Of a stretch of DNA of 64,000 nucleotides, positions 10,588 through 59,470 are shown one piece after another; position 1 is the stretch's first letter; each line of letters starts with the position of its first letter. The notes under the pieces are model-generated. The model did not search any database and was not told where the DNA came from. It worked only from the letters and a program-made list of their open reading frames with translations. Location: contig JBAZBY010000001.1 of assembly GCA_041671225.1 (NCBI GenBank), positions 690,060 through 754,059 of the forward strand. The letters run 5' to 3'. A program made the translations under genes and the position numbers. Origin of the DNA: Patescibacteria group bacterium. GTDB lineage: Bacteria; Patescibacteriota; Patescibacteriia; JBAZBY01.

Positions 10588-10667
10588 AGTGAGAAGCATA
10601 GGTTGACCCGCTTTCACAAAGTGTTACGGCAGGCAGGCAGCTACTTTAGCAATAGTAAGCAATAGAG

Positions 10668-10696: not shown

Positions 10697-10739
10697 GGCT
10701 CTGCAAAAAGAGAACGAAAATCCAAAAAAATCAAACAAT

Positions 10740-11330: not shown

Positions 11331-11393
11331 TCTTCACCCTTCCGTTGTTGTGGAACCTGTGGTACGCTGCACTTCGCGCATCATCCTTTTGTT

Positions 11394-21194: not shown

Positions 21195-21268
21195 TGGCTC
21201 GGGGACAGGGATTCGAACCCCAATTACTGGGACCAGAACCCAGCGTCCTACCATTAGACGATCCCCGA
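21195..21268 (-). tRNA. tRNA-Gln (anticodon CUG), CCA encoded
   Basis: manual cloverleaf: acceptor UCGGGGA/UCCCCGA with U1-A72 and G73 (Gln identity elements), D-stem GUCU/GGAC, anticodon stem CUGGG/CCCAG with loop UUCUGGU, T-arm GGGGUUCGAAUCCC. Confidence 0.8.
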
Positions 21269-31378: not shown

Positions 31379-33181
31379 GTGTTTACGCCCAGAAAGGCGG
31401 ATGCAGTGTTGCGCATTCTGATCACGGTCGTTGCGCTGGTTCTGTCAGCTGGAACTGCACAAGCGGCCAAGGTTCTCTGGTTTCCCTTCGACTACCCGAT
31501 CTCCGTCACCTGTGGGTTTGGGTGCTACACAGTACCCATCCATCATGACGGTGTGGATTACTCCTGCCCTGAAGGGACCTCCCTCTACGCCGCGATTGGT
31601 GGAACGGTAAAGAAGGTGGTGAACTCCGTATCGGGCCAGGTGTGCAGTTCACCGAATTTCGGCAACTACGTGCTCATTGAGAACACGCAGTATGGCGTTC
31701 AGGTGATCGAGGCACACATGCTGGCAGGCTCCATTACCGTTGTTGAAGGGCAGGTGATCACCGCAGGCCAGTACATCGGCAAATCCAGCAATTCTGGATA
31801 CACGATGACGCTGGTCAACGGGGTCTACAAATGCGGATATGGCGGAGGTCATCACCTTCACCTTGAGACGCGCGTTCTCATCAACGGCAGGTGGGTTGCG
31901 GTGGATCCCTATATCTATAATGGAGGGCTCTGGACCAGCCCCCTCCAGTACGGGAACGATTCCAACTGCACCCTCGCTTCCTCCTCCGAGGCGAAGTCCC
32001 AGATCACGGCGTGCCGGAACAGGAACACCTGGCTCGGCAGCGCGACCTCGGGATTCCACCAGTGGAAGCCCTCGGGCGGCAACGGCAAGTGGGTCTACAT
32101 CATCGATTACCAGAAGGGGTCCGTGGTGTTTGACGCTCTTGGCGGTGCGGAGAAGGCATATGCCGTGAGTAGCTACATGCTCGGTTGTTGGGCCGCGGAT
32201 CACGGTTGCGCTGGTTCTCGGCTCGGTTGTCCGATCACTGAACGCTACGCCTGGAACGGTGGGCTGCGCATGGACTGGAACTACGGGTATACATTTGAGA
32301 AGGCCGGCATTTCCTGCGGTCCCATCAAGTGGGGTACGGCGGGCTATTACGGCCCTGGCACGTTTGCGGGCTACGCCATCGATTGCCAGGCGACGTACAA
32401 GTTCGCTGCGTGCTATGCGCGTCATGGCGTTGGGAAGCTCGGGTATCCCGCGTCGGGAAATGGAATTCTGCCGTACGTGCATACCATCGGCAGCAATCCC
32501 AACATCCTCGCGCAGGATTTCAAGGGTGACCAGTGGGACAATGTTGTGCTGCTCTACGACCGTGAAGCGCCGCAGTATGCGAGCATCGTCGCATCCTTCT
32601 GCCCGTCACCCAACACGCCGGATCAGGCAAGCGAACTTCATGGCGGTTTCCGCGGCTACTGGGAAGCGAACGGTCGCTTCAGCACCATCGGCGTTCCGTT
32701 CACGGATGAAGTGCCGGTTTTCGGTAAGCCGTGGATCGTCTACCAGCGGTTCATCCGGCGATCCGGAAGCAACTGGGTCGCGTGCGAGCTCCGTTACTAC
32801 CCGAATGGCAGTGTGTCGAAAGCCACGCTGTTCACGAAGGCGGTTACCGTAAGCTCTGTCGACGTTGAAATTGACATCGTGGACGACACGCAGGAAAGCC
32901 CTGCGCCTCGCCCGGTGCTTCTCCTCAGCCCCAACCCGACGGCAGGCAGCAGCACCATCCAGTTCTCCCTTCCCACCGAGGGACAGGTTGCACTGCAGGT
33001 GTTTGATATCGCTGGCCGGCTGGTGGCCACGCTCCTGGACGAAACGCGTCCAAGCGGAGAATACCAGATTTCCTGGGATGGAAAGGACGGACAGGGCAAT
33101 GCGGCGGCAAGCGGAATCTACTTCGTTCGTCTCGCAACTCCTTCCTTCCAGACCACCAAGCGTCTCGTGGTACTCCGTTAG
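31379..33181 (+). CDS. M23 (LytM-type) metallopeptidase with a C-terminal T9SS-type sorting domain
   Basis: signal peptide; 'HHDGVDY...GNYVLIEN...GHHLHLE' (HxxxD/HxH); large Trp/Gly/Tyr-rich middle region; last about 85 aa 'LLLSPNPTAGSSTIQFSLPTEGQVALQVFDIAGRLVATLLDE...GEYQISWDGKDGQGNAAASGIYFVRLATPSFQTTKRLVVLR' match the Por/T9SS C-terminal domain pattern; GTG start. Confidence 0.75.
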   Translation: MFTPRKADAVLRILITVVALVLSAGTAQAAKVLWFPFDYPISVTCGFGCYTVPIHHDGVDYSCPEGTSLYAAIGGTVKKVVNSVSGQVCSSPNFGNYVLIENTQYGVQVIEAHMLAGSITVVEGQVITAGQYIGKSSNSGYTMTLVNGVYKCGYGGGHHLHLETRVLINGRWVAVDPYIYNGGLWTSPLQYGNDSNCTLASSSEAKSQITACRNRNTWLGSATSGFHQWKPSGGNGKWVYIIDYQKGSVVFDALGGAEKAYAVSSYMLGCWAADHGCAGSRLGCPITERYAWNGGLRMDWNYGYTFEKAGISCGPIKWGTAGYYGPGTFAGYAIDCQATYKFAACYARHGVGKLGYPASGNGILPYVHTIGSNPNILAQDFKGDQWDNVVLLYDREAPQYASIVASFCPSPNTPDQASELHGGFRGYWEANGRFSTIGVPFTDEVPVFGKPWIVYQRFIRRSGSNWVACELRYYPNGSVSKATLFTKAVTVSSVDVEIDIVDDTQESPAPRPVLLLSPNPTAGSSTIQFSLPTEGQVALQVFDIAGRLVATLLDETRPSGEYQISWDGKDGQGNAAASGIYFVRLATPSFQTTKRLVVLR

Positions 33182-33407: not shown

Positions 33408-34079
33408 ATGAAGCGGTTTATCCTGCTCATCACGCTCATCGTCGTTTCTTTGGTGTTCGCGGCAGCGCCCATCAACGCGCAGCAGCCCATCCAAGAGACG
33501 ACCTGGGGGAGGATCAAAGTTCAGTATGGGGAGCAGACCCATTTGGATCGGCCCAATACTCTGGATCCGAAAAGCATCGGAGCATACACGGCAATCGCCT
33601 GGCCGTTCCCCTGGGAGAGCCCGAACGACTGGCGCGGCGATGAAGGTGATCGTACGGACGGTGGTTGGTATAACTCGCGATGTGCCGGCTGGATTCCGAC
33701 GCACAGCGGTGCCGATCACTATGCTCGCGACCTTTCGCGGAGGTACAAGTCCACGGCTGGCGCGCGCGTCTACGCCGGACTTACCGCGAAGGTCGTGAAA
33801 ATCGAGAAGTATGGCGCCGGGTGGAGCGTCGTACTGTACTATCCGAAACAGCGACTGTGCATACGCTACGCCCACATGGACGGCATCGTCGTGAACGTTG
33901 GTTGGACTGTGTCCATGCGGCAGTACCTTGGATACGTTCTTGACCAGGGGAGTGGGTCTCACCTGCATCTGGTCGTTTATGAGAATGTGCCGGAGGGTTC
34001 AAACGGCTTCCCCGCGTATATTCCGAGCGTCTGTAACAGGGACACGTGGCACGCCTGCCGGGTCTACTTCTTCTCCTGA
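33408..34079 (+). CDS. secreted M23-family peptidase (small)
   Basis: signal peptide 'LLITLIVVSLVFAAAPINAQ'; 'HSGADHYARD' (HxxxD) and 'GSHLHLV' (HxH). Confidence 0.6.
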   Translation: MKRFILLITLIVVSLVFAAAPINAQQPIQETTWGRIKVQYGEQTHLDRPNTLDPKSIGAYTAIAWPFPWESPNDWRGDEGDRTDGGWYNSRCAGWIPTHSGADHYARDLSRRYKSTAGARVYAGLTAKVVKIEKYGAGWSVVLYYPKQRLCIRYAHMDGIVVNVGWTVSMRQYLGYVLDQGSGSHLHLVVYENVPEGSNGFPAYIPSVCNRDTWHACRVYFFS

Positions 34080-34785: not shown

Positions 34786-36147
34786 ATGAATAAGAACATC
34801 ATTCTTGTCAGCCTGGCAGGCATTATTGCTGTCGTGACACTGGGTATTTTTATGATGTCTTTTACGAGGACAGAAGAAGGCAACAATACAACAACGAACC
34901 AGACCCAGCGTGTGAACGCCGCTGAGACGACAAAACGCATTCCAAATACTTTGTTCGAAAATGAGGGTGCGCTTGTGAAGGTGAATTTTAAGGGTGAAGA
35001 TTATTTGTTTGCAACAAGTGTCTATAATATGTTACGTCCCGGATCAACAGGCTCCGAAGAACTTATCCTGCAAGGTGAAGAGTGGCAGCCGATTTTGTAT
35101 TCATCGCTTCATGCGAATGATGTTCTTTTTCCCGGAGGACCACTGCTCCGTTTTGATCAAAGAACGCAGGAGATCTCCGAAACCGTCTCTCGCGATGAGT
35201 ATTTTCTTCGTGTGTATAACATAGAAAATGGCAACCTTGAAAATACTATTAGCTATCACACGGGAGATACCATTTTGACCTCGGGGGTTGAGATTGAAGG
35301 CGACGTTAAATATACGAATGTTTCCAGCGACTATCTCGTTGATTTTGCGGTGGATGCTTCGAACAAAAAGATCTATATGCTCGTCGCGATAGATGGTTCC
35401 AGCGGTGCGCTCTGGGGTGATTCAACATCAGAATCTTCTGTGGAAATTATTGAGGTTGACGTCGTGAATGGTACCGCTGAGAGTATTGTCTCATTCACAA
35501 GTGAAAAAGCTACTCTCGTGCATGAGGATGAGGCCGATACATGGTTATTGCCAACAGAGATTCATTATGTTGAAGGAGCGGTGCTTCTTACATGGAGAAA
35601 TAAACTGGAACGTGTCGATCTTCTTACTGGAAACCGTCAGGACATTCTTTCCTTGACGCAGGAAGATTGGGATGCAAACCGACAACTATCCGTTGAGAGT
35701 AACCCAACTGGCACAGCGGCCATTATCTTTGATTCAGTGGGGTATATGACGAATGAGGAAGAAAGTTCAATTCGATTATTCAACGCAGCTGACCGTACTC
35801 TCTCGGTCATTGGCCCGCTTTCTGCTGATATTGTACAACAACATCCTATTTGGAATGACTCAGGTACGCAGATGGTTACGACATCAAATACGAGTTCCAC
35901 CATCTATCAAATATCACTCGAAAATAATACACTGACATCGCTTGATAACATGGTCGTTGAGAGGGTTTATGATTGGCTTCCGTCAGGCGAGTTATTGGTA
36001 AGTATTTTTGATGTGTACGAGGATCCTGATGAGATTCCGGAAACGGACAGTAACTATCGTTCACAATTTTATCTCTACAATTTGGAAACAGGGCTTGGAG
36101 CGTCGTTAGGGAATTATCGCAGCCCGCATTATTTCGGCAGGGTATAG
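34786..36147 (+). CDS. hypothetical exported protein (453 aa)
   Basis: signal anchor 'IILVSLAGIIAVVTLGIFMM'. Confidence 0.55.
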   Translation: MNKNIILVSLAGIIAVVTLGIFMMSFTRTEEGNNTTTNQTQRVNAAETTKRIPNTLFENEGALVKVNFKGEDYLFATSVYNMLRPGSTGSEELILQGEEWQPILYSSLHANDVLFPGGPLLRFDQRTQEISETVSRDEYFLRVYNIENGNLENTISYHTGDTILTSGVEIEGDVKYTNVSSDYLVDFAVDASNKKIYMLVAIDGSSGALWGDSTSESSVEIIEVDVVNGTAESIVSFTSEKATLVHEDEADTWLLPTEIHYVEGAVLLTWRNKLERVDLLTGNRQDILSLTQEDWDANRQLSVESNPTGTAAIIFDSVGYMTNEEESSIRLFNAADRTLSVIGPLSADIVQQHPIWNDSGTQMVTTSNTSSTIYQISLENNTLTSLDNMVVERVYDWLPSGELLVSIFDVYEDPDEIPETDSNYRSQFYLYNLETGLGASLGNYRSPHYFGRV

Positions 36148-36148
36148 C

Positions 36149-36190
36149 CTTCCGCTCTCCCTCCTAGCAGCCGGGAGGTCAGAAAGGCAA
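36149..36190. promoter_or_regulatory. partial copy (5' half) of the conserved upstream box: ttccgctctccctcctagcagccgggaggtcagaaaggcaatg
   Basis: matches 33283-33325. Confidence 0.35.
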
Positions 36191-36224
36191 TGTTTGAATG
36201 CGCTTTTGCGGTATTTTGGTTTTG

Positions 36225-36253
36225 TTGCGAATCCTAGCGGGAAGTGGTATAAT
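36225..36253 (+). promoter_or_regulatory. sigma70-like promoter: TTGCGA, 17-nt spacer, extended -10 TGgTATAAT
   Basis: about 115 nt upstream of the sensor-domain paralog array. Confidence 0.5.
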
Positions 36254-36368
36254 TTTTTTCAGAGAACAACTGAATTTTCTATACTCATGGAACCAGTAAT
36301 TGGGGCGGAGGGTTCCGGACTCACTTATTTCAATACCTATCCAAGGCCATAGCGGCTTTGTTTTTTGT

Positions 36369-37037
36369 ATGGATTTGATTACCGCATTACTTTTTCTTGT
36401 CGGTATCGCCGATGTGGTGATTGGCGTATATATTGGCATACAAAAACCAGTGACCACCATCCGTAAATCGTACACATGGGTGGTGTTTGGAACAGCTGGG
36501 TGGGTATTGGCGAATGCTGTTTTTCGACTTATGAGCACGGATGCCGCTGTTGAAATTGCGGAACGCCTCACGTTCTTATTCGGCACCGTAGCGACATCAG
36601 CCTTTCTCTACTTCTCTTTCGTTTTCCCATATACAAAGCGTCCCCTGAAGCAATGGATGTTTTTGTATGTAGTTTTAAGTGCTGTCGTCATTTGTATTTT
36701 TGCCTTATTTACAGAATTTTTTCTTGTTAGAAGCGTTTCAGTTGGATCACATGAAAGTATCAGTACCTATGGACAATTCTACGCAGTATTTTTTATTTGG
36801 TTTATTGGTACTTGGATATGGAGTATTGCGAATCTTCTATTGAAGTATAAGGATGCAGATGCGTTTTCTCGTTGGCAAATACGCATGATGCTGTTTGCGG
36901 TTCCGTTAACAATTATTCTCGCAATTCTTTTTGATCTCATTGCGCCGTATCTCCAGATTGCTGGCACAGGGTGGTTCGCTTCAGTATCATCGGTTATTTG
37001 GCTGGGTTTTACTGTTTATATTGTGATGAAACGATGA
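36369..37037 (+). CDS. stand-alone polytopic membrane sensor-domain protein, paralog A (ends ...YIVMKR)
   Basis: about 7 TM helices; 'DAFSRWQIRMM' block; homologous to the N-terminal membrane domain of the histidine kinase at 40191; stop overlaps the next start (ATGA). Confidence 0.65.
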   Translation: MDLITALLFLVGIADVVIGVYIGIQKPVTTIRKSYTWVVFGTAGWVLANAVFRLMSTDAAVEIAERLTFLFGTVATSAFLYFSFVFPYTKRPLKQWMFLYVVLSAVVICIFALFTEFFLVRSVSVGSHESISTYGQFYAVFFIWFIGTWIWSIANLLLKYKDADAFSRWQIRMMLFAVPLTIILAILFDLIAPYLQIAGTGWFASVSSVIWLGFTVYIVMKR

Positions 37038-37699
37038 ACACCACCGACATCCTTTCCTGGTTCAACATCGTGGTTGCCGCAGCAGAGCTCTATTTTGCAT
37101 TCTATATGCTGCTCACGCGCGTGCGGAGCAAGGTGAGCGTTTTTTATTTTTTGTTTTCCCTTGGAGTTGCGGGGTGGGTATACAGCATCGGCGGGTTTTA
37201 TCTGTTTGAGAATCCAGGGGTCGAGCGGTTTCACCTCAACCTCGCGTATATTTCCGCCTCGCTCATCATGTCGGCGCTCTTTCTCTTTGCCATGGTGTTT
37301 CCTTTCCAGAAGCGGCGACTGGGGCTGGAACACTATGCACTCGCGATCCTTCCATTCCTGGCATTTGCGGTCGCATCCTTCGCGCATCAGATCCTCACCG
37401 GTTACATCAAAGATCCCACGGAGTATTTCCTTGGTCCGCTGTACACGCCGTACACCATCTATATCGTGGGATATTATCTCATTGCCATGGCGCTGTTGGT
37501 GGAAAAGTACCGTATGAGTGACGGCATCCACCGCTGGCAGCTCAAGAATCTCATTTTGAGCCTGCTCTTTGCGGGCGTCATGGGCGTTACCTTCAACCTG
37601 CTGATCCAATTCTGGGGCATCGCGTATCTGAACCACGTGGGAACCCTTGCGTCGGTCATTTGGTTCAGCACGACCTTATACATTGTGATGAAGAGATGA
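37034..37699 (+). CDS. stand-alone membrane sensor-domain protein, paralog B
   Basis: 'DGIHRWQLKNL' block, ends ...LYIVMKR; ATGA overlap at both ends. Confidence 0.65.
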   Translation: MNTTDILSWFNIVVAAAELYFAFYMLLTRVRSKVSVFYFLFSLGVAGWVYSIGGFYLFENPGVERFHLNLAYISASLIMSALFLFAMVFPFQKRRLGLEHYALAILPFLAFAVASFAHQILTGYIKDPTEYFLGPLYTPYTIYIVGYYLIAMALLVEKYRMSDGIHRWQLKNLILSLLFAGVMGVTFNLLIQFWGIAYLNHVGTLASVIWFSTTLYIVMKR

Positions 37700-38376
37700 T
37701 TGACCAGCCATATTTTGCAATTGCGGCCATGATAATAATAGGGCTTTTTGATTTTGGATTCGCATCCTTTATTTTTACCCGCTATCAACGAGAGTCGCGG
37801 ATTATCATGTATGGCATGTTTGCGCTGATGGTTGGTGGGTGGGTTCTCCTCAATGGGGTTGGTCTACTCTTTGAGCGAGGCGGTGCAACCTCAGATTTTT
37901 TTGGTCGAAGTGCATTTGTCTTTGCGGCTTTCATTTTTCCGTTTATGTATGTCTTCTCTGTTCTTTTCCCATTCCCATCAGCGCGTATTGACGGACGGTT
38001 CGTTTTTCTTGCCCTGCTGCCGGCAATACTTTTGTCCGCCCTTGCATACTTCACCGACGCACTCATTCAGGGGTTTGATTTAACTCGGTATGCACAAACA
38101 ATACCCGGTGAGGGTTTTTGGCTCTACGTGCTGTATATACTGATATTCTTTGGATTAATTCTTGCGGAACTCCTCGGTAAATTCCGGCGTTCCGATGGCA
38201 TTCATCGCTGGCAACTAAAGTACTTAATTATTGTCATAGCCCTTTCTGGCTTTATCGGCATTATCACGGTACTTATTTTGCCTTATATCTGGTACTTTGA
38301 CTCACTTGCATGGATTGGGCCATGTTCATCAATCATTTGGCTTGGTGGGAGTATGTATATTGTTATGAAGAGATGA
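37696..38376 (+). CDS. stand-alone membrane sensor-domain protein, paralog C
   Basis: 'DGIHRWQLKYL' block, ends ...MYIVMKR. Confidence 0.65.
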   Translation: MIDQPYFAIAAMIIIGLFDFGFASFIFTRYQRESRIIMYGMFALMVGGWVLLNGVGLLFERGGATSDFFGRSAFVFAAFIFPFMYVFSVLFPFPSARIDGRFVFLALLPAILLSALAYFTDALIQGFDLTRYAQTIPGEGFWLYVLYILIFFGLILAELLGKFRRSDGIHRWQLKYLIIVIALSGFIGIITVLILPYIWYFDSLAWIGPCSSIIWLGGSMYIVMKR

Positions 38377-38440
38377 TTTATTTACGACAGCAATAAGCAC
38401 GTCTAATTTCTACTTGATTAGTTTTCCCAGGTACTGACAA

Positions 38441-39142
38441 ATGAGTTATATTATTAGAAAAGTAAAATCAGTTTTTAAAACTATTTATTTCACTTTTTTT
38501 TATAAAGAATTATTTAAAGATTACCGCTTTACTATTAGTAAAGCTTCGACTGAAGTAGAACGAAGGGAGTTGTATCGATTAAGATACCAGGTGTACTGCG
38601 AGGAATATGGTTATATTGATAGGAATAACTGTCCAGACGGATTAGAAAAAGATGTTTATGATGAGCATTCAGATTACTTTATTATTCGTGATAGTAAAAA
38701 TAATATTGCTGCAACGGTAAGAATTATTAAGAATTCTCAAGCAGGATTTCCTCTTGAGAAAAATTTTCACCTAAATATTGAAACATCAAATCTTGATCAT
38801 GATCATTTAGTCGAGATTTCAAGACTTATAGTTGCTAGAAAGTATCGAAAAAAATTATTGCTATTGTTTCTAGTGAAGGGTTTATATTTGTATGCGATAG
38901 AACAAAAGATAACTCATGCATATTTTATAATCGATGAAAAACTCTATCCTCTTCTCTTGAAGATTAAAGTACCTGTAATAAAAATTGGAACACCGGCAAT
39001 CTATCAGGGTTTAACATTTCCATGTCTTGTTGATGTTACTGAATGGGAACGTAATGTTAGAAGAAGTAGAAGTTTTAATAGGTTTTATTATTTTGGCGGT
39101 ATGGATTTAAGCGATGACGGAAATAAGTATGAAGTTCATTAA
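38441..39142 (+). CDS. GNAT-fold N-acyltransferase of the FeeM / N-acyl amino acid synthase type
   Basis: 'RRELYRLRYQVYCEEYGYID....DGLEKDVYDEHSDYFIIRD', 'VEISRLIVARKYR' match the conserved blocks of the exosortase-associated N-acyl amino acid synthase family; very AT-rich. Confidence 0.65.
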   Translation: MSYIIRKVKSVFKTIYFTFFYKELFKDYRFTISKASTEVERRELYRLRYQVYCEEYGYIDRNNCPDGLEKDVYDEHSDYFIIRDSKNNIAATVRIIKNSQAGFPLEKNFHLNIETSNLDHDHLVEISRLIVARKYRKKLLLLFLVKGLYLYAIEQKITHAYFIIDEKLYPLLLKIKVPVIKIGTPAIYQGLTFPCLVDVTEWERNVRRSRSFNRFYYFGGMDLSDDGNKYEVH

Positions 39143-39159
39143 GATTTACGAGGGATACC

Positions 39160-40194
39160 GTGCAAGGCATTCAAGATAATTTGGGCGAGTATTTTAATTT
39201 TACGCCAGGTGTTTTTCTATATATATATATACTAACATTTATTCCATCATGGATCGCACTGATATTATCACTTCGTTATCTTAAGAGACGCAACATTCAC
39301 GCTAGTCTCTTTTGGCTCATTATCCTTTTTGGTTTATTGGCCTTGCCGTATCTGTATGTATTAGTTGGGAGCGTAGGTCTTCCTTGGCAATTTTTGAGCG
39401 CGATTATTCTCATTCCGACATACAGCTTCTCAAAAATTTTAATGAACAGAAAAACATATTCTGATACCTTCGGGGGTTCATTTTTTTGGACTTTATATGC
39501 AAAAGTGTATGATTTGTTGCTTCTTTTCAGTCCCTATAAACAACTTGTATCTCAGCTTTTAGAAGAAATAAGAGTAACTAAGCCAGCTGGGAATATTATT
39601 GATATTGGTTGCGGTACAGGAAATCTTGCGGTGTCACTTTCTGCGAATACAAACTATACTATTTTAGGAATAGATAATTCTATTGGAATGCTTACGCGTG
39701 CACAAAAAAAACATTATGATAAACAAAGGGTGCTTTTTCAAAAAGTTGATCTAGAGAATGAAAATTTTATATCTGAGATAGATGGAAAATTTGATATTGC
39801 TATTATTAGTAATGTGCTTTATACACTTGGGTCACCAATTATGGTTCTTAAGCAAATCAAAGCATTATTAAACAATGATGGCTTCTTAATTATCTCAGAA
39901 CCTAAGCAGGGTTCTAGTTTATATGCTTTATTCAAAGAGCACTATAGACAATTGTTTAGTCATTTTAGTATTAATAATCTAATCATATCTGTTAGGGATT
40001 TTTTTATTTTATTAGTTGTTGGTGTATTTAATTTTGCAATTTCTTTTAGAGCACGGGGTAGGGGGTCATATTCTTTTTTTTTACCGCACAATCTTACTCA
40101 ACTAGTTCAGGAATCTGGATTCAGTATTGAAAAAATTGGTGCGTCTTATGCAAACCAAAATATCTTACTTAAAGCAAAAAAAATACTAACATGA
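39160..40194 (+). CDS. membrane-anchored class I SAM-dependent methyltransferase
   Basis: 2-3 N-terminal TM helices, motif I 'IIDIGCGTGNLAV', 'DIAIISNVLY'; stop overlaps the histidine kinase start (ATGA). Confidence 0.7.
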   Translation: MQGIQDNLGEYFNFTPGVFLYIYILTFIPSWIALILSLRYLKRRNIHASLFWLIILFGLLALPYLYVLVGSVGLPWQFLSAIILIPTYSFSKILMNRKTYSDTFGGSFFWTLYAKVYDLLLLFSPYKQLVSQLLEEIRVTKPAGNIIDIGCGTGNLAVSLSANTNYTILGIDNSIGMLTRAQKKHYDKQRVLFQKVDLENENFISEIDGKFDIAIISNVLYTLGSPIMVLKQIKALLNNDGFLIISEPKQGSSLYALFKEHYRQLFSHFSINNLIISVRDFFILLVVGVFNFAISFRARGRGSYSFFLPHNLTQLVQESGFSIEKIGASYANQNILLKAKKILT

Positions 40195-42983
40195 ATGCAA
40201 TTCTTGTTTTTTCTTCTGTTCTAGCAGCCCTTGTATTTATTTTAGGTGTCGTTATTTTGTTGCGGGGAAAAAATCAGAGAACGAATATTGTATTCTCATT
40301 GATTACTTTATCAGCATTTTTGTGGACTGTTTCAAATATATTTGTAGATACCTCATATACTTCTTCTGCTGCATTGTTTTGGAGTCGTACGGCGTTACTT
40401 GGGCCGATTTTTATTGCAAGCCTTTTTGTGATTTTTGTTTCGATTTTCCCTTCTGGCGTGCTAAGTCTTCAGAAAAAATTATTTTATTCACTCCCAATTC
40501 TTCCGTTCCTACCGTTTATCTATACAAACTCAAATATCTCAGCTGTTAAATTTGTTAATGGGACAGTTCAAGCAACACCAGGAGTATTATTCTATTTTGT
40601 GCTAGTCTATTTTGCAGTATTTTTTGGGTTTGGATTTTGGACACTTATTCAGAAATATAGAAAGTCTTACGGTTTACAACGACAGCAGATCACTTATGTA
40701 TTTTTGGGATTTTTTCTTACTGTAGGAATCGCAACCTTCACAAATTTATTGTTACCACTTTTTGGGATTCAAAATGTGCAAAGCCTTGGGCCAGCTTCTA
40801 CATTTTTTCTTATATCATTTATTGGCTATGCAATCATTCGCCATCGTCTCCTTGACATAAGTATCATCATTAGACGGTCCATCGTCTATGTCTTCCTCAT
40901 CGCATTTGTTGCCGGTTCCTTTGCAGGCGTCACCTTCCTCTCCGGACGTCTATTTTCAGAGGCCCTCGGTCTCGGGCAATTTCTCACTTCCGGCCTCGTT
41001 GCTTTACTGGTTGTTCTTCTTCTTGATCCTCTCAAAAATTATATTTCTCGCGTAACAGACAAAATTTTCTTTAAGGCAAAAATTGATTACAGTACCGTCC
41101 TGCAAAAACTCTCAACGACCATGGCAGAAAAGATCGAGATGGACCCGTTGTTGGAAGAAGTTGCGCATATAACAAAAGAAGAGCTCAAGGTAGAATCTGT
41201 GATAACGATCCCAAAGAACAAGCAGGGGAACTTTCGCGCACGCGTGAACCGTCCGCCGCATGATATGTCTCTCATTTTGAAGCAGGATTCTGAGCTCATT
41301 AAATTCCTTTCAACAGGAGAGATTTCTGTATTGGATTCCTTAGAGCGCAAGATCGAAGACACCACAAATGACCGTGAGCGTAAGAAGCTTGAAAAATCCA
41401 AAGAAGACATGAAGCTTGCCCATGCAGCTATTGCCGCGCCCATCATGCGCAAAGGGGAACTCACAGGGGTCTTTTTTATTGGGCCAAAGAAGTCCGGCGA
41501 TAGCTTTTCCCTTGAGGAGCTCCGGCTTTTCAAAGTGCTGGGGCCTCAGCTTGCAACTGCCCTTGAAAAGGCGCGCCTCTTTGAAGAGGTAAAAGCCTTT
41601 ACCGCGCAGTTGCAACAGCGCGTTGAAAGCGCAACCAAGGAATTGCGGGAACGGAACGCATACCTTGTTGCCTTGCAGGATGTCTCCGCGGCCATCACCC
41701 GCACGTTTGACTTTGATAAAGTCACGCAAGAAATCACGAATGCGATTGCGGATGAACTTGGTTTTGTCGGCGGGCTTATGGTGTTTCTCGATAACGATGG
41801 ACGGAACGTCTTTCCGCAGGCAATCACACAAACAAAGATAACAGAGCGCGCCCTAAAACTTCTGCCAACGAACTTCAAGGAGTTTAAGGGAGATCTCTAC
41901 AAAGAGAATACGCTGGATCACCGCGTTATCCGCGAAGGCAAACGCAGGATTACCACACAGCTTTCTGACGTTATTTCACCACCGGTTCCAAAATTGATCG
42001 TGAAAGGAATTCAGAAGCTGCTTGGCATTAAGACATTAGTACTCGTCCCAATTTTTTCGGAAGATAAAGCAGTGGGAGCGATTGACTTTGCACTTGCGAA
42101 AGAGGAGAAAGATATCAGCGCCCGTGAATTTGAAATCATGCAGGCACTTGCAGACCAAACAGGGATCGCGTACCGGAACTGGCGGTATGTTGAACGTATT
42201 AAAGAAGCAAACCGGCAGCTTGAAGACGCAAATGAGCGCCTGATGCAGCTGGATCAGGCGAAGACGGAGTTCGTCTCAATTGCTTCTCACCAGCTCCGCA
42301 CGCCAATGACCGGCATCGCGGGGTATCTTTCTATGCTGGTGGGAGGGGACTTTGGCAAGCTCATCCCTGAGCATGGCAAAATTTTGAAGCAACTGCTTGA
42401 AGAAAGTCAACGCATGATACGGCTCATCAACTTGTTCCTCAACGTCTCCAAGATCGAAGCGGGCAAGTTTGAGCTTACCTTCCAACCCACCCAGCTTGAG
42501 GACGTGGTGGAGGGTGAGGTGAAGGAATTAATTCGCTTGGCAGCAGAGAAGAAGCTCAAACTCACCTTCAATAAACCAAAGAAAAAGCTTCCTCTTGTGA
42601 CGGCTGATGGCGACAAACTGAAGGATGTTATTTTGAACCTTGTGGACAATGGCATTAAATACACGGCAGAGGGGAGTATCGTTGTGGATATGGCAAAGGT
42701 TGGGAATGAGGTGCATGTTTCCGTGAAGGATACCGGCATCGGCATTGAACCGGATGATGCAAAACATTTGTTCCAAAAGTTCGTCCGCGCTTCCGGCATC
42801 GCGCAGATCCACCCTGATGGTTCCGGCTTGGGACTCTTTATCGCAAAGAAGATCGTTGAGGCGCACGGCGGCAGCATTTGGGTTGAAAGCAAAGGGCAGG
42901 GCAAGGGCAGCACGTTCTTTTTTGCCATTCCAATCGAAAAAGCAAAGGTCTTATCAGCAGCGACAACAACAAAGAAAATATGA
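40191..42983 (+). CDS. sensor histidine kinase: polytopic N-terminal membrane domain, GAF-type domains, HisKA, HATPase_c
   Basis: H-box 'SIASHQLRTPMTGIAGYLSML', N-box 'LNLVDNGIKYT', G-boxes 'DTGIGI' and 'GSGLGLFIAKKIVEAHGGSIW'; first about 660 nt AT-rich like the upstream insertion. Confidence 0.9.
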   Translation: MNAILVFSSVLAALVFILGVVILLRGKNQRTNIVFSLITLSAFLWTVSNIFVDTSYTSSAALFWSRTALLGPIFIASLFVIFVSIFPSGVLSLQKKLFYSLPILPFLPFIYTNSNISAVKFVNGTVQATPGVLFYFVLVYFAVFFGFGFWTLIQKYRKSYGLQRQQITYVFLGFFLTVGIATFTNLLLPLFGIQNVQSLGPASTFFLISFIGYAIIRHRLLDISIIIRRSIVYVFLIAFVAGSFAGVTFLSGRLFSEALGLGQFLTSGLVALLVVLLLDPLKNYISRVTDKIFFKAKIDYSTVLQKLSTTMAEKIEMDPLLEEVAHITKEELKVESVITIPKNKQGNFRARVNRPPHDMSLILKQDSELIKFLSTGEISVLDSLERKIEDTTNDRERKKLEKSKEDMKLAHAAIAAPIMRKGELTGVFFIGPKKSGDSFSLEELRLFKVLGPQLATALEKARLFEEVKAFTAQLQQRVESATKELRERNAYLVALQDVSAAITRTFDFDKVTQEITNAIADELGFVGGLMVFLDNDGRNVFPQAITQTKITERALKLLPTNFKEFKGDLYKENTLDHRVIREGKRRITTQLSDVISPPVPKLIVKGIQKLLGIKTLVLVPIFSEDKAVGAIDFALAKEEKDISAREFEIMQALADQTGIAYRNWRYVERIKEANRQLEDANERLMQLDQAKTEFVSIASHQLRTPMTGIAGYLSMLVGGDFGKLIPEHGKILKQLLEESQRMIRLINLFLNVSKIEAGKFELTFQPTQLEDVVEGEVKELIRLAAEKKLKLTFNKPKKKLPLVTADGDKLKDVILNLVDNGIKYTAEGSIVVDMAKVGNEVHVSVKDTGIGIEPDDAKHLFQKFVRASGIAQIHPDGSGLGLFIAKKIVEAHGGSIWVESKGQGKGSTFFFAIPIEKAKVLSAATTTKKI

Positions 42984-43411
42984 TCACACCACCCCGACCC
43001 ATGAGAGTCCTCGTTGTGGAGGACGAACCGCTCATCTCCAGTCTGTATGCGCGCGCACTTGGCAAGGATAAGAATATCACTGTTGAGACAGCAAAAGATA
43101 AGATTGATGCTGTGGCAAAGATAGAACATTTTGAGCCGGATATCGTGTTTTTGGATCTTATGATTCCTCTTGGGACGCATGAGTTCACCGCGGATTATGA
43201 TCACCCCGCCGGCTTTGACGTTTTAGAAACGGTCAAGCGTAATCCGCACACAAAAAATGCAAAGGTGATCGTCCTTTCCTGTTTGGATGGACAGCAACAT
43301 AAGGCGCATGCGGAATCATTGGGCGCCGATGCATACGTCGTGAAATCAGAGATCGACCCGCATGAATTGATCGAACGATCCAGACAGATGTTTGCCAAAC
43401 AGGCGCGATAA
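42980..43411 (+). CDS. single-domain response regulator (CheY-like receiver only)
   Basis: 'RVLVVEDEPLI', phospho-acceptor 'FLDLMIP', 'VIVLSC', 'AYVVK'; no output domain. Confidence 0.85.
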   Translation: MITPPRPMRVLVVEDEPLISSLYARALGKDKNITVETAKDKIDAVAKIEHFEPDIVFLDLMIPLGTHEFTADYDHPAGFDVLETVKRNPHTKNAKVIVLSCLDGQQHKAHAESLGADAYVVKSEIDPHELIERSRQMFAKQAR

Positions 43412-43413
43412 GC

Positions 43414-44673
43414 ATGGCTGAGCGCAAAAAATCTGTTGTCATCTGCGGAGGCGGTTTTGCGGGGCTTTCTGCTGCGCGCAGTATCGCGCGTTCACCAGGT
43501 ATGGAGCATGCCCAGATAACAGTGTTGGATGATTCGGTGTTTTATGTCTACCATGCGTGGCTCTATGAAGTGGCGACCTTTACTATTGAGCACGGCATTT
43601 CACAGAAGCGACTTCGAGATTTTGTATGCATTCCTACTGAATCGCTCGAGTATCTTTTTTCAGAAACCAATATACGTTTTGTACAGGATCGCGTTACGAG
43701 TGTTGACCTTGCGAGTAAGACGGTGCGGTGTGAGAGTGGTCGTAGTTATCAGGGTGATGTTGTGCTCTATGCACTAGGGAGCATCACAAATGATTTTGGT
43801 GTTCCGGGTGTTCCAGAGCACACCGTTGGGTTGAAAAATCTTGAAGATGCACTGACGATCCATGAACGTATTCAGGAACTTTTTCGCGATGTGCAGCTGC
43901 ATCCCAGGCAGCGTAAGGTGGTGATTTGCGGTGGCGGGCTTTCTGGGGTGGAAGTTGGCGCAGAGCTGATGCACTACATCCGTCACATGGAGCGTGATCA
44001 CGCGTTACCGGAAGGAAGGGTTACAGTGGAGATTATTGAGGCAGGTCCAAAAATCCTTTCTATGCTTCGTGATTCTGTCCGTAAGATTGCAGAATATCGT
44101 CTGAAGAAGCTCGGCGTGACCGTGCGTCTCAATACACGCATCACGAGCATCGCACACGATGAATATGCAGTAGAGGATGGTGCGGTTTCGCGTCACGACC
44201 TGTTTATTTGGACCGGTGGCGTGAAGCCAAATCCCGTCGTGCAGAATATCCCCGGAATGCCCTTAGACGGGCACTCCTGCATCATGACGGAGCCGACGTT
44301 GCAGGTGCAGGGACATCCCGGCGTTTTTGCATTAGGTGATGCGGCAGCATGTATGCCACTCGGAGGAAAGCATCCGCTTCCAGCAACAGGGCAGATTGCC
44401 TGGAAAGAGGGTATCGCAGTCGGGCCAAACATTGCGGCGTACCTTACCGGAAAGCCCTTGCACGCCGTGCATGTGAAACAGGAGGGCCCGGTGGTACCAC
44501 TTGGCGGCAAGTGGGCCATTGCTGTGCTTGGACCTCATACCGTTTTTTCCGGATTCATCGGATTTGTCATACGGCGCATTGCGGATTTTCGCTATTTAAG
44601 GTCACTGCTACCATTCTGGGAAGCGGTTCGGTTTGTCGCGGAAGGTACGCGTGTCTTTTCCAAAAACGACTAG
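43414..44673 (+). CDS. ndh: type II NADH dehydrogenase / FAD-dependent pyridine nucleotide-disulfide oxidoreductase
   Basis: two Rossmann GxGxxG motifs ('VVICGGGFAGLSAA', 'VVICGGGLSGVEVGAEL'). Confidence 0.75.
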   Translation: MAERKKSVVICGGGFAGLSAARSIARSPGMEHAQITVLDDSVFYVYHAWLYEVATFTIEHGISQKRLRDFVCIPTESLEYLFSETNIRFVQDRVTSVDLASKTVRCESGRSYQGDVVLYALGSITNDFGVPGVPEHTVGLKNLEDALTIHERIQELFRDVQLHPRQRKVVICGGGLSGVEVGAELMHYIRHMERDHALPEGRVTVEIIEAGPKILSMLRDSVRKIAEYRLKKLGVTVRLNTRITSIAHDEYAVEDGAVSRHDLFIWTGGVKPNPVVQNIPGMPLDGHSCIMTEPTLQVQGHPGVFALGDAAACMPLGGKHPLPATGQIAWKEGIAVGPNIAAYLTGKPLHAVHVKQEGPVVPLGGKWAIAVLGPHTVFSGFIGFVIRRIADFRYLRSLLPFWEAVRFVAEGTRVFSKND

Positions 44674-44729
44674 AAAAGACACTACCAGAAAAGTTCAAAA
44701 TATGGTTTACTATATGCAGTGAACCTCTT

Positions 44730-45923
44730 ATGAAATTGCGCAAACTCACTGCAGATTTAGTCAGGGGGAAGCGAGTCCTTCATCGCGTATGTTTGGATGT
44801 GAAGTTTGATAAAAAGAACGGTCAGCGCATCGTAAAGGATGACAAGCGTTTGCGTGAGATTCTTCCCACGATACGGTTTCTCAGAAAGGCCAATGCGAAG
44901 GTCATCATTTTAACGTATATTGGCAGACCCAAAGGCAAGAGGGTTCCTGAGCTTTCTGCTGATCCGGTTGCCGCGCGGCTTGGTGAACTCCTACATATAC
45001 GAGTAAAAAAAGTTGATGATTGTATTGGTCCGGCTGTTCAAAAAGCCATAGCCGCTATGAAGCCCCGCGATGTGTTGATGCTGGAAAATGTACGTTTTCA
45101 TGCAGAAGAAGGAGAAGGAACAAAAGGAAAAACTGACGGGAGTGATACTTTCGGGAAAAAACTTGCAGCACTTGCTGATGTCATTGTAATGGACGCCTTC
45201 GGGCAGATGCACCGCGCAGTACCTTCCATTTTGCATATCCAGAAGTATATGCGTAAACGCGCCGCTGGTTTACTACTAGAAAAAGAAGTGAAGGAATTGG
45301 ATCGTGCTTTGAATAGTCCGTATCATCCCTTTACCGTGATCATCGGCGGAGCAAAAGTGGAAACAAAACTTCCTGTTATGACAGCGCTCATGAAGCATGC
45401 AGATGATATGCTCGTTGGCGGCGTCCTGGCAAATACATTGCTCAAAGCAAAGGGCATTCAGACGGGGCGTTCGCTTGTTGATGATGACACGATGTTCATG
45501 CTTAAGAAATTCAATCTTACGGATAAGCGTTTGCATTTGCCCGTTGATGTGATGGTGGAGGATGCTGCTGGCAAGCGCCACAAGCGCGCGGTGGGAGCGG
45601 TGCAACCGCGCGAAAGGATTCTGGATATTGGGCCAGAAACGATCGTACTCTTCCATGACATTCTCAAAAAAGCAAAGATGGTACTTTGGAACGGTCCGCT
45701 TGGGTATTTTGAAGATCCCACGTATGCCATTGGTACAAACGAGGTCGGCAGGATTCTTGGCAAGGTGTCTGCCTACACGATCATTGGTGGCGGAGAAACC
45801 ATTACCGCGGTCAGAAACGCGCGCGCAGAAAAACATATTGATTTCATTTCAACCGGCGGCGGCGCCATGCTCGAATTTTTAACCGGGAAAACACTCCCAG
45901 GCATTAAACCTCTCTTGGTATGA
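44730..45923 (+). CDS. pgk: phosphoglycerate kinase
   Basis: 'GKRVLHRVCLDV...DDKRLREILPTIRFL...AKVIILTYIGRPKG', 'GGGA' hinge; the ORF-track N-terminal extension overlapping ndh is rejected. Confidence 0.9.
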   Translation: MKLRKLTADLVRGKRVLHRVCLDVKFDKKNGQRIVKDDKRLREILPTIRFLRKANAKVIILTYIGRPKGKRVPELSADPVAARLGELLHIRVKKVDDCIGPAVQKAIAAMKPRDVLMLENVRFHAEEGEGTKGKTDGSDTFGKKLAALADVIVMDAFGQMHRAVPSILHIQKYMRKRAAGLLLEKEVKELDRALNSPYHPFTVIIGGAKVETKLPVMTALMKHADDMLVGGVLANTLLKAKGIQTGRSLVDDDTMFMLKKFNLTDKRLHLPVDVMVEDAAGKRHKRAVGAVQPRERILDIGPETIVLFHDILKKAKMVLWNGPLGYFEDPTYAIGTNEVGRILGKVSAYTIIGGGETITAVRNARAEKHIDFISTGGGAMLEFLTGKTLPGIKPLLV

Positions 45924-47176
45924 AGATAGAAAAACTCAACGCACGAGAAATTCTTGACTCGCGCGGTAATCCAACAATTGAAGCAGTGGCCTTCGGCAAT
46001 GGACACCACGCGGCCGCGGCTGTTCCTTCTGGCGCGAGCACGGGCTCACATGAAGCGCTTGAACTGCGCGACCGTGACGAAAAACGCTTTGACGGACTCG
46101 GCGTGATGAAGGCAGTTGCCAATGTGAAGGAAACCATTGCCAATGCGGTGGTCGGCAAGGAGTTTGTTGATGTCACGCAATTGGATGCGTTCTTGCTGAA
46201 GCTTGATGATTCCCCCAAGAAGACGAACCTTGGTGCAAATTCACTTCTTGCGGTTTCTCTCGCGTTTGCACGCCTTGATGCGGAAAATAAGGGGCAGCAC
46301 CTTTATGAGTATCTTGCCAAGACATATGGCTTTGGTCCGCTGCCAAAGAAGATGCCGCGCCTCATGATGAATGTGATCAACGGCGGGAGTCACGCAGACA
46401 CGCAGCTTGAGATCCAGGAGTTTCACATTGTGCCGCGTCAGGATAGCGCGCTGGAAATGGTGCGTGTTGGTGCGGAAGTATTCCATGCATTGAAGCAGGT
46501 ATTAAAGCGACAAAAAAAAGTAACGCTCGTAGGCGATGAAGGCGGCTATGCGCCAGAGTATCGCGACGGACGCGAAGTCCTGGCCGTTATGCAGCAGGCA
46601 GTGGAGCTTGCCGGATACATACCTGGAAAGGATGTGGATTTTTCAATTGATGCCGCAGCAACGGAGCTTTTTGACATTGAGACGGGGAAGTATCGGTTAA
46701 ATGAGAAAACGTTGAGCGCAACACAGCTCATCAGCGTCTATCGCGATTGGATAAAAGAATTTCCTATCATTTCACTTGAAGATGGACTTGCAGAGGATGA
46801 TTTTGAAGGCTGGAAGAAATTAAAACAAGAGTTTGGAGAAAAAATGACGCTCGTCGGCGATGACCTTTTTGTGACGAATCTTGTGCGATTAGAAGAAGGT
46901 ATTAAAGAAGATCTCGCGAATGCGATCCTTATTAAACCGAATCAGATCGGTACATTGACCGAGGCGGTACAGGCAATTCAACGCGCGCAGAAGGAAAAAA
47001 TGGCGATCGTCATATCCCATCGGTCAGGAGAAACCTGCGACCCGTTTATCACCGATCTGGCGGTTGCCTCGCATGCGAATTATTTGAAGGCGGGATCCCT
47101 CTCACGCGGTGAACGTCTCACGAAGTACAATCGCTTAATGGCGATTGATGACCTTCTGCATCAAACAGGAGCATAA
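45920..47176 (+). CDS. eno: enolase
   Basis: 'AREILDSRGNPT', 'SGASTGSHEALELRD', 'IKPNQIGTLTE', 'SHRSGETCD'. Confidence 0.95.
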   Translation: MKIEKLNAREILDSRGNPTIEAVAFGNGHHAAAAVPSGASTGSHEALELRDRDEKRFDGLGVMKAVANVKETIANAVVGKEFVDVTQLDAFLLKLDDSPKKTNLGANSLLAVSLAFARLDAENKGQHLYEYLAKTYGFGPLPKKMPRLMMNVINGGSHADTQLEIQEFHIVPRQDSALEMVRVGAEVFHALKQVLKRQKKVTLVGDEGGYAPEYRDGREVLAVMQQAVELAGYIPGKDVDFSIDAAATELFDIETGKYRLNEKTLSATQLISVYRDWIKEFPIISLEDGLAEDDFEGWKKLKQEFGEKMTLVGDDLFVTNLVRLEEGIKEDLANAILIKPNQIGTLTEAVQAIQRAQKEKMAIVISHRSGETCDPFITDLAVASHANYLKAGSLSRGERLTKYNRLMAIDDLLHQTGA

Positions 47177-58860: not shown

Positions 58861-59470
58861 GACGCAACTTCACAAGATGGTCGCTCCGTCTTCGCCCCCT
58901 GCTTCGCAAAGGGCTGCGACGGACAAGCCCCGTAAGCACAAAAGGGCCTGTCCGCCGTAGCTCTGAACGGAGTGAGGAGCGAAGGCGGAGAGGAAAGTCC
59001 GAACACCCCACGTGGTGCTCGCGGCACTCTAAAAATGGGAGTGCGACGAGCGTCACGTGGAAGTGGATACCACCGAAATGGTGGCAGGAGTGATCCTAGG
59101 GAAAGTGCCACAGAGACAATACCGCTCCGTCTTCGCCCCCTGCTTCGCAAAGGGCTACGACGGACAAGCCCCTGTTATTGCATCGTGCAATAGGCCTGTC
59201 CGCCGTAGCTCTGAACGGAGTGAGGAGCGAAGGCGGAGTAAGGGTGAAAAGAGTGGGGTAAGAGCCCACAGGCAGGTCTGGTAACAGATCAGCGTGGCAA
59301 ACCCTATCCGGTGCAAGATCGAATAGGCTCGCGTGCTTCATTTTGTGAGGTGCGCCGAGCGGGTAGATTGCTGGATCGCGTTGGTGACAACGCGGCAAGA
59401 GAGATGATCATCACCTGCAAACCGTGAGGAATGTAGGGACAGAATTCGGCTTATCGTGAAGTTGCGTCCC
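58861..59470 (+). ncRNA. rnpB: RNase P RNA (bacterial type A core) with two large inserted hairpins
   Basis: P1 pairing 58861-58873 (gacgcaacttcac) with 59456-59468 (gtgaagttgcgtc); P4 'GGAAAGTCCGAACAC' at 58992-59006; J11/12-P12 'TAAGGGTGAAAAGAGTGGGGTAAGAGCCCAC' at 59239-59269; P13-like 'GGTCTGGTAACAG'; 3' P4 'ACAGAATTCGGCTTAT' at 59439-59454. Confidence 0.85.

Follow-up and report, generated by a model that had tools for sequence, protein, structure and literature searches.

Organization of the operon

We analysed a 64-kb window (64,000 nucleotides; positions 690,060 to 754,059 of contig JBAZBY010000001.1, assembly GCA_041671225.1) of a Patescibacteria group bacterium, in which a first-pass annotation made from the sequence alone had proposed a signalling operon. 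Mapping of open reading frames (ORFs) places seven consecutive plus-strand ORFs at 36369-43411, where that annotation had put them: three kinase-less seven-transmembrane (7TM) proteins, here called tm1, tm2 and tm3, a GNAT protein of the N-acyl amino acid synthase type, a membrane methyltransferase, a histidine kinase and a stand-alone receiver (Table 1). No further 7TM, synthase or kinase gene lies elsewhere in the window. Pfam gathering scores and NCBIfam curated cutoffs served as the membership thresholds for all window proteins.

Of the six internal junctions, four show an ATGA overlap and the remaining two are gaps, of 64 nt between tm3 and the synthase and of 17 nt between the synthase and the methyltransferase; the earlier count of six short overlaps among seven junctions was therefore too high. 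An eighth gene, Ndh-like (43414-44673), begins after a 2-nt gap from the receiver, so the transcript may continue beyond 43411. The single promoter that had been proposed upstream of tm1 is indeed the top-scoring site within 35800-44900, with 10/12 matches and an extended -10 element, but promoter-like sites are no more frequent than in shuffled sequence (19 found, 17.6 expected). A real promoter at this position is thus plausible, not demonstrated. A terminator scan likewise gave no enrichment over shuffles, and no convincing terminator 3' of the receiver gene. A longer tm1 ORF is possible from a TTG at 36300.

Table 1. Features of the operon and RNA genes of the window (TM, transmembrane; GC3, GC content at third codon positions; scores are profile bit scores).
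Feature	Position	Strand	Description
Promoter candidate	36225-36253	+	sigma-70-like, TTGCGA, 17 nt, TG-TATAAT; 221-nt gap upstream of tm1
tm1	36369-37037	+	kinase-less HisKA_7TM protein, 222 aa; PF16927 36.9 bits; ATGA overlap with tm2
tm2	37034-37699	+	kinase-less HisKA_7TM protein, 221 aa; PF16927 36.2 bits; anomalously high GC3, 0.70
tm3	37696-38376	+	kinase-less HisKA_7TM protein, 226 aa; PF16927 32.1 bits; copy closest to the kinase
Synthase	38441-39142	+	GNAT, N-acyl amino acid synthase-type, LuxI/FeeM superfamily, 233 aa; TIGR03694, PF13444, PF21926, PF00765
Methyltransferase	39160-40194	+	class I S-adenosylmethionine (SAM)-dependent, about 3 N-terminal TM helices, 344 aa; Pfam Methyltransf_23/31/12/25/11; putative tailoring partner of the synthase
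Kinase, whole gene	40191-42983	+	9-TM, GAF, GAF, HisKA, HATPase
Kinase, HisKA_7TM sensor	40191-40856	+	residues 1-222; PF16927 53.4 bits; GC3 0.22-0.37
Kinase, TM8 and TM9	40857-41060	+	residues 223-290, 7TM-to-GAF linker; hydropathy peaks 223-241, 259-277
Kinase, two cytoplasmic GAF domains	41061-42215	+	residues 291-675; GAF_3 317-459, GAF_2/GAF 507-660
Kinase, HisKA and HATPase_c transmitter	42216-42983	+	residues 676-930; PF00512 63.3 bits, PF02518 95 bits; H-box SHQLRTP, His700
Receiver	42980-43411	+	stand-alone, 143 aa; PF00072 57.4 bits (cutoff 30.2); ATGA-coupled to the kinase
Low-GC3 island	38441-41090	+	synthase, methyltransferase and sensor-coding 5' third of the kinase; GC3 0.15-0.40, flanks 0.45-0.76
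tRNA-Gln(CTG)	21195-21268	-	
RNase P RNA class A	59009-59462	+	195.7 bits

The synthase belongs to the exosortase-associated N-acyl amino acid synthase family

A FeeM-type GNAT had been proposed for the fourth gene, and the profile searches agree. The protein scores 129.6 bits against TIGR03694 (cutoff 111.95), matching in two stretches because the Patescibacteria enzymes lack an insert of about 40 aa that is present in canonical members of that family. Its Pfam scores are 63.6 bits for PF13444 (Acetyltransf_5), 54.2 bits for FeeM and 36.3 bits for PF00765 (Autoind_synth; cutoff 24). Against the NCBIfam equivalogs for acyl-homoserine lactone (AHL) synthases it reaches about 20 bits, with cutoffs of 250-292, and its best match in the PDB is the LuxI-type autoinducer synthase 5w8c (E value 4e-5). 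All of 16 homologues, with identities as low as 27%, share R48, E69, D71, D74, R94, E125, S127 and R128 without variation, and we take the acidic and basic residues among them to be equivalent to the catalytic residues of LuxI. The gene has a GC content of 0.30 and a GC3 of 0.21. A second candidate family, OlsB, was rejected because the scores of 35.1 and 28.7 bits fall far short of the cutoffs (350 and 320); the similarity is weak, with an E value of 1e-8. Scans for PEP-CTERM tail motifs returned none in the window or in loci L001-L012 (described below), and no exosortase was found among the Pfam-scanned neighbours in the window and the Patescibacteria loci, the window being 64 kb of a contig of roughly 1.03 Mb.

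The Joint Genome Institute (JGI) call of the synthase gene is 50 residues shorter (183 aa), the segment at issue being 38441-38590, residues 1-50. All Patescibacteria homologues keep the hydrophobic and aromatic N-terminal motif YFTFFYKELF, which canonical TIGR03694 proteins lack; this segment may be a membrane-association helix.

Kinase-less 7TM paralogs share the sensor domain of the kinase

The first three genes had been described as mutual paralogs with about seven TM helices, homologous to the membrane sensor of the kinase. All three, and the N-terminus of the kinase, pass the HisKA_7TM (PF16927) cutoff of 28.6 bits over a 7TM region of about 220 residues. The paralogs match one another with E values of 4e-20 (tm1-tm2), 2e-29 (tm2-tm3, 33% identity) and 7e-17 (tm1-tm3), and the kinase matches tm3 at 1e-11, tm2 at 1e-3 and tm1 at 0.02. 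One detail of the description has to be corrected: the paralogs do not stop exactly where the kinase becomes cytoplasmic. They end at TM7, and two additional TM helices of the kinase (about residues 223-277) lie between this point and the first cytoplasmic GAF domain.

In an AlphaFold2 model, tm3 is predicted with high confidence (predicted local distance difference test, pLDDT, 88.7; predicted template modelling score, pTM, 0.88), and the predicted fold of the 7TM paralogs resembles a G-protein-coupled receptor (GPCR), not a transporter. The positive-inside rule and the 9-TM layout of the kinase place the N-terminus outside and the C-terminus inside, and the model shows a beta-hairpin in the outer TM4-TM5 loop. 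Among the kinase-less copies, conservation is lowest in the outer loops and highest at the cytoplasmic TM5-TM6 junction (SDGIHRWQLK), the end of TM3 (FPF/FPY) and the end of TM7 (IWLG..YIVMKR). Receptors whose ligand sites vary while the inner coupling surface is held in common would be expected to show such a pattern.

A profile search of 1.84 billion representatives recovered 8,091 7TM relatives. Among the best 160 of these, 95 are 7TM-only proteins, 14 have a 7TM-7TM-GAF-kinase arrangement and 3 carry four 7TM modules on one kinase. Such in-cis tandem kinases argue that additional 7TM modules physically operate with the kinase's own sensor. No synthase lies near the 4x7TM-PAS-kinase at locus L091; the tandem fusions therefore support 7TM-7TM association in general, not a link to the synthase.

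Methyltransferase, kinase and receiver

The fifth gene encodes the membrane methyltransferase that had been expected, a class I enzyme with N-terminal TM helices. In the kinase, the phylogeny of the GAF domains tracks the kinase core and not the sensor domain. Membership in the PrsK family (TIGR02916) was rejected, the kinase scoring 45.5 bits against a cutoff of 300. Homology of the membrane domains could not be demonstrated: an hhalign comparison of the 7TM profile with PrsK-like N-termini gave a probability of 15%, and PrsK-like proteins have no PF16927 match. We retain PrsK only as an analogy of architecture. One homologue (P0038) matches both PF07695 and PF16927.

The receiver has an acidic pocket at D15/E16 and a D59 within FLDLMIP. 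PF00072 is its sole family match over 143 aa, so that the earlier description of a receiver without an output domain holds. In L005, L010 and L093, too, an orthologous receiver is encoded close to the kinase.

The gene cluster is conserved across Patescibacteria

Related loci (L numbers) were gathered by tracing synthase homologues to their contigs, together with a genome scan and a metagenome scan. The first-pass annotation had suggested looking for the same gene order in related genomes, and it recurs in at least 12 Patescibacteria loci (the window, L001, L003/4, L005/6, L007, L008, L009, L010, L011, L096, L098 and L099). The conserved order is one to five kinase-less paralogs, the synthase, a variable middle module and the 7TM-GAF-GAF kinase. 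Across loci the kinase-less paralogs come in two sizes: about 220 aa, consisting of the 7TM region alone, and about 450-480 aa, where the 7TM region is followed by TM8-9 and the first GAF domain. The kinases measured are 43-49% identical and the synthases 41-52%; at identities so low, the gene order has outlived substantial divergence.

The middle module takes one of several forms: the membrane methyltransferase (window, L007, L008), a 4-TM protein of 160 aa with a ThiF/E1-like adenylyltransferase (L005, L009, L011), ThiF alone (L004, L098), or a soluble, roughly 570-aa enzyme whose adenylate-forming domain is PaaK-like (L001, L010).

At L090, methyltransferase and synthase are fused in a single protein of 455 aa. 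In this protein the methyltransferase part corresponds to residues 107-341 of the window methyltransferase (28% identity, E value 1e-22) and the synthase part matches the window GNAT with an E value of 1e-16. The fusion family comprises 18 cluster representatives with 32-100% mutual identity at 90% coverage or more, one of which (P0199, 69% identity), from Ca. Magasanikbacteria, is the only taxon-named relative in the search output. The L090 contig itself (CAZHUL010000101.1, 2.7 kb) is binned as Gammaproteobacteria and may be mis-binned.

In all three fusion contexts examined (L103, L104, L105), a homologous kinase directly follows the fusion gene. These kinases match residues 6-460 and 680-915 of the window kinase, and the best match of each of their 7TM domains is to the kinases of methyltransferase-type loci. 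The genes around the three fusion-kinase pairs all differ, with no shared synteny; linkage of synthase and kinase, seen in the syntenic loci and in these three, is thus independent of synteny. A fusion gene followed by a kinase is a layout typical of cognate synthase/receptor pairs. Type IV pilus or type II secretion system (T2SS)-like genes (T2SSE, T2SSF, N_methyl pilins) adjoin the minimal pair at two of the three loci (L103:12561-17392 and L105:12488-17381).

Partners of the synthase in other phyla

As a comparison set we used 78 TIGR03694 loci from outside Patescibacteria, taking neighbours within 10 kb. About 34 of the 78 contain a ThiF-family gene, often as part of a synthase-synthase-ThiF-nitroreductase operon, and in five a PaaK-like ligase lies directly downstream of the synthase. 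Because ThiF and PaaK-like genes accompany the synthase in other phyla as well, the middle enzymes are genuine pathway partners of the synthase family. Adjacency of synthase and kinase was rejected as a general trait of TIGR03694 loci: a kinase of any kind occurs in 21 of the 78, none of them with a HisKA_7TM domain, which makes the pairing with this kinase a feature of Patescibacteria.

Methylococcales and other Proteobacteria carry synthase-synthase-ThiF-nitroreductase-like operons (L018, L023, L028, L041, L052, L058; around 10000-13600 in most), and at L086:10737-12794 ThiF is fused to a nitroreductase-like domain in a protein of 685 aa. This pairing is reminiscent of the E1-like/dehydrogenase pairs of azole-forming pathways.

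The sensor domain of the kinase co-varies with the middle module

Nine full-length kinases, a small sample, were aligned, and identity was scored by region and evaluated with identity matrices and permutation. In the 7TM domain (residues 1-222), kinases from loci with the same type of middle module are 43-69% identical and those from loci of different types at most 38%, a perfect separation (permutation p about 0.001). No such separation is seen among the nine loci in TM8-9, GAF1, GAF2 or the kinase core (p 0.06-0.45). The cytoplasmic parts of the kinase and the synthase share another grouping, which is presumably organismal.

Individual comparisons illustrate the contrast. L005 and L007/8, of ThiF and methyltransferase type, are 78-80% identical in the core, 56-62% in GAF1 and 57-60% in the synthase, but 29-31% in the 7TM domain. 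L001 and L009, of PaaK and ThiF type, show the same disparity (core 73%, GAF1 68%, synthase 61%, 7TM 34%), whereas L005 and L009, which both have the 4-TM protein and ThiF, are 59% identical in the core, 39% in GAF1, 38% in the synthase and 48% in the 7TM domain. The identities of the ThiF proteins mirror the 7TM grouping (57% between L005 and L009). In sliding-window comparisons, identity switches near residues 210-240 of the kinase.

Base composition, an independent signal, also shifts within the kinase gene, where the sensor part gives way to the cytoplasmic part. In 9/9 loci GC3 is 0.14-0.41 over the first 200-300 codons and 0.5-0.8 thereafter, and the low GC3 is common to the synthase and middle genes, forming the island listed in Table 1. 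The kinase-less 7TM genes have a GC3 of 0.39-0.70, so the coding of membrane proteins alone does not explain the island. By window position, tm2 has a GC3 of 0.65-0.76, its paralog neighbours tm1 and tm3 0.33-0.47 and the genes just downstream 0.15-0.40, making the operon a three-level compositional mosaic.

The simplest reading of these patterns is that the tailoring gene or genes and the sensor-coding 5' part of the kinase gene are inherited and exchanged as one unit. Selection would maintain such a unit if the sensor must match the tailored product.

A proposed make-and-sense signalling module

We propose, with a probability of roughly 55%, that in this operon Patescibacteria have a self-contained module for both making and sensing a signal. 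The first-pass annotation had suggested that the locus makes and senses an N-acyl amino acid, possibly methylated, and the comparative data strengthen that suggestion in three respects: (i) methyltransferase and synthase are fused in some lineages, (ii) the fusion and a homologous kinase travel as a portable pair, and (iii) the tailoring enzyme co-varies with the kinase sensor. None of the three findings that the annotation had named as refuting came up, since the GNAT falls in the expected family, the paralogs match the kinase N-terminus and the genes stay together in homologous loci. The chemistry of the product and its recognition are predictions from sequence.

In the proposed mechanism, the GNAT would acylate an amino acid and the methyltransferase would tailor the product. 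Methyl esterification, which would mask the free carboxylate, is the most plausible form of tailoring, with N-methylation as the alternative. Two of the three classes of middle enzyme adenylate carboxylates and a class I methyltransferase can methylate one, which is why we infer that the free carboxylate is the target of tailoring. The tailored product would be a neutral, lipophilic molecule that the GPCR-fold 7TM domain of the adjacent kinase recognises inside the membrane. The signal would pass through TM8-9 and the two GAF domains to autophosphorylation of His700 and phosphotransfer to the single-domain receiver. Across lineages, the tailoring enzyme and the 7TM-coding segment of the kinase gene would be exchanged as a contiguous specificity cassette, giving rise to signal/receptor dialects analogous to the comQXP or agr pherotypes. 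The three 7TM paralogs would be accessory receptor subunits associating with the membrane domain of the kinase, where they might be co-receptors, sense other ligands or act as dominant-negative partners.

Several observations weigh against a make-and-sense module: (i) The receiver lacks an output domain and the operon lacks a DNA-binding regulator. (ii) A variant locus (L093:7001-13143) has no GNAT synthase; its genes encode a 7TM protein, a PaaK-like enzyme, a ThiF-like enzyme of the Rv1355c type (362 aa), a 735-aa 7TM kinase and a receiver. (iii) Patescibacteria usually lack fatty-acid synthesis, and the window contains no ORF resembling an acyl carrier protein, which bears on the acyl donor. 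(iv) The synthase does not co-vary with the type of middle module (p 0.12). (v) The co-variation rests on nine loci and on identity matrices rather than on formal tests for recombination; it could stem from the hitch-hiking of DNA that is physically adjacent, or from contacts between membrane-anchored tailoring enzymes and the kinase instead of ligand matching. (vi) The low-GC3 island could reflect control of expression. (vii) The kinase-less paralogs do not co-vary with the tailoring type and are absent from the minimal two-gene modules (L103, L104, L105).

The last point also weakens the idea that the paralogs are decoys for the locus's own signal. They are old, fast-evolving, multi-copy genes (20-39% identity) with partial positional orthology between genomes. 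The natural 7TM-7TM-kinase fusions suggest a role as co-receptors; the paralogs could also be receptors for other ligands, including foreign dialects, or modulators.

Alternative explanations

The GNAT and the methyltransferase might instead make a structural aminolipid, as OlsB and OlsG do for ornithine lipids, with the 7TM kinase and its paralogs tracking the state of the membrane and regulating this synthesis homeostatically. The membrane anchor of the methyltransferase, the intramembrane position of all sensing modules and the faint resemblance of the GNAT to the OlsB models (E value 1e-8) would all fit, and aminolipids from the enzyme superfamily of the GNAT are known (PMC11631085). We nevertheless consider lipid remodelling unlikely, because the OlsB scores (35 and 29 bits) are far below the cutoffs of 350 and 320 while that of TIGR03694 is passed, and because no second, OlsA-type acyltransferase is found by Pfam among the seven operon genes. 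Repeated replacement of the tailoring enzyme together with the sensor domain only is better accounted for by specificity matching, and the portable synthase-plus-kinase pair resembles signal/receptor pairs. About equally improbable is a lipoamino acid deployed by a probable episymbiont as a surfactant or antibiotic against its host or competitors, with the kinase sensing host or envelope cues or giving feedback and the kinase-less 7TM proteins serving in self-protection or export. Many N-acyl amino acids of this synthase family are antibacterial or modulate biofilms (PMC7293339, PMC4897644), the paralogs are as numerous and divergent as arms-race genes would be, and Type IV pilus genes adjoin the minimal module in L103 and L105. 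However, the paralogs have a receptor-like rather than a transporter fold, are homologous to the kinase sensor and are fused in cis to kinases in other lineages; their absence from the minimal modules means that they cannot be obligatory immunity factors, and co-variation of sensor and tailoring enzyme would still imply that the kinase recognises the product.

A quite improbable explanation is that the genes form no functional unit, their order persisting by shared ancestry within one Patescibacteria clade while the kinase senses something unrelated. The flanks are in part conserved, L005 and L009 having an M23 peptidase on the upstream side and Ndh/PGK on the downstream side, and the comparison with other phyla, where nearby kinases lack the 7TM domain, would be in keeping with this view. 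Against it, the kinase is ATGA-coupled both to the methyltransferase and to the receiver, the pair turns up in three contexts without shared synteny, the middle gene has been replaced while its flanks stay and co-varies with the sensor domain only, and the compositional island crosses a gene boundary.

Relation to known systems

A make-and-sense module of this kind would work most like two-component quorum sensing of the LuxM/LuxN or CqsA/CqsS type, with pherotype diversification in the style of comQXP. In LuxM/LuxN, CqsA/CqsS and LqsA/LqsS, the synthase gene lies beside that of the cognate multi-TM histidine kinase, as the synthase and polytopic kinase genes do in the Patescibacteria modules, and a lipophilic, acyl-derived signal is sensed in the membrane domain, which would also be the case here. 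LuxN has nine TM helices with its N-terminus outside, and the window kinase is predicted to share this topology. The differences are equally clear: here the synthase is a TIGR03694/FeeM-type GNAT with a tailoring enzyme, the sensor is a HisKA_7TM domain with a GPCR-like fold and two inserted GAF domains, the receiver has a single domain, kinase-less receptor paralogs are present and the phylum is Patescibacteria.

The synthase passes the cutoff of the PEP-CTERM/exosortase-associated N-acyl amino acid synthases (Craig et al. 2011, as cited in PMC11072679 and PMC7293339), and ThiF-like and PaaK-like partners lie beside it in both settings. In Methylomonas, the formation of a polysaccharide band, a phenotype at the community level, depends on a synthase of this family (PMC11072679). 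The Patescibacteria enzymes differ in having neither the insert nor a PEP-CTERM protein or exosortase seen in the window or related loci, and in having the HisKA_7TM kinase and paralogs as neighbours, whereas the PrsK-type kinases near proteobacterial synthases lack a HisKA_7TM domain. In ComQXPA and agr, too, a signal-modifying gene and the membrane sensor of a kinase form the polymorphic unit, the membrane domain of ComP being hypervariable and the cytoplasmic part conserved (PMC4008528). There the signal is a ribosomal peptide, while here it would be a small lipoamino-acid derivative; here whole classes of tailoring enzyme are replaced, and it is lineages, rather than strains of one species, that have diverged.

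The predicted class of product exists in nature, since N-acyl alanine methyl esters (NAMEs), natural analogues of AHLs, occur in Roseovarius tolerans (PMC11580390). NAMEs have no role in AHL signalling in Roseovarius, and that source names no biosynthetic genes; the product here would be an ester by prediction. Seven-helix membrane modules coupled to signalling domains are also found in 7TMR-DISM/LytS-type receptors such as BtsS, RetS and RgsP; of these, the 7TM kinase BtsS binds a small molecule (PMC10653868). HisKA_7TM differs in having no known ligand and in occurring both free-standing and in tandem arrays of two or four per kinase. In TrlR-TraR and RetS-GacS, a receptor paralog that lacks or blocks the output module acts via hetero-oligomers. 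These pairs are a precedent for paralogs without output, and a comparable interaction of tm1-tm3 is putative; the paralogs here differ in that they do not track the chemistry of their own locus.

Patescibacteria (the candidate phyla radiation) are ultra-small, mostly uncultured and host-dependent, and their signalling is essentially unknown. Full-text literature searches found no link between Patescibacteria or the candidate phyla radiation and N-acyl amino acid synthases, and no ligands described for HisKA_7TM. A wider and more tentative extension of the proposal, which we hold to be possible though doubtful, is that these bacteria communicate with one another or with their hosts by tailored N-acyl amino acid autoinducers that would be secreted and read by HisKA_7TM receptors, with mutually unintelligible dialects arising by cassette swapping and the paralogs as additional subunits of the same kinase that might read foreign dialects. 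To learn how Patescibacteria sense kin or hosts, a conserved synthase/receptor module would offer a concrete starting point.

If that wider extension holds, a GPCR-fold family of more than 8,000 cluster representatives without a known ligand would gain a receptor role, and the orphan exosortase-associated synthases would gain a function. The operon proposes a single, testable link among the HisKA_7TM ligand, the role of the exosortase-linked synthases, lacking since 2011, and the uncharacterised ThiF-like and PaaK-like partners. From the co-variation of tailoring enzyme and sensor, one can define pairs, matched and mismatched, for direct testing. The evolution of receptors is another point of interest, given a GPCR-like fold that occurs in both free-standing and tandem-fused copies.

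Genomic surroundings

In an Rfam gathering search of the whole window, just the RNase P RNA and one tRNA were found (Table 1), both outside the cluster. Downstream, the mechanically called pgk ORF (44349-45923) shares about 325 nt with the 3' end of the Ndh-like gene; pgk itself probably starts at an internal codon, beyond 44673. After pgk and eno come two tandem paralogs that encode cofactor-independent phosphoglycerate mutase (iPGM_N and Metalloenzyme domains; 47176-48771 and 48765-50375).

Upstream of the cluster lie two M23 peptidase genes, at 31379-33181 and 33408-34079. The former, in a patch with a GC content of 0.60, carries FlgD_ig and Por_Secre_tail, the C-terminal sorting domain of the type IX secretion system (T9SS) type. 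A partnership of a 7TM receptor with an M23-type peptidase is known from Rhizobiales, in RgsP/RgsM (PMC6107284). M23 peptidases recur near the cluster in L001, L005, L009 and L010, some of them with Por_Secre_tail.

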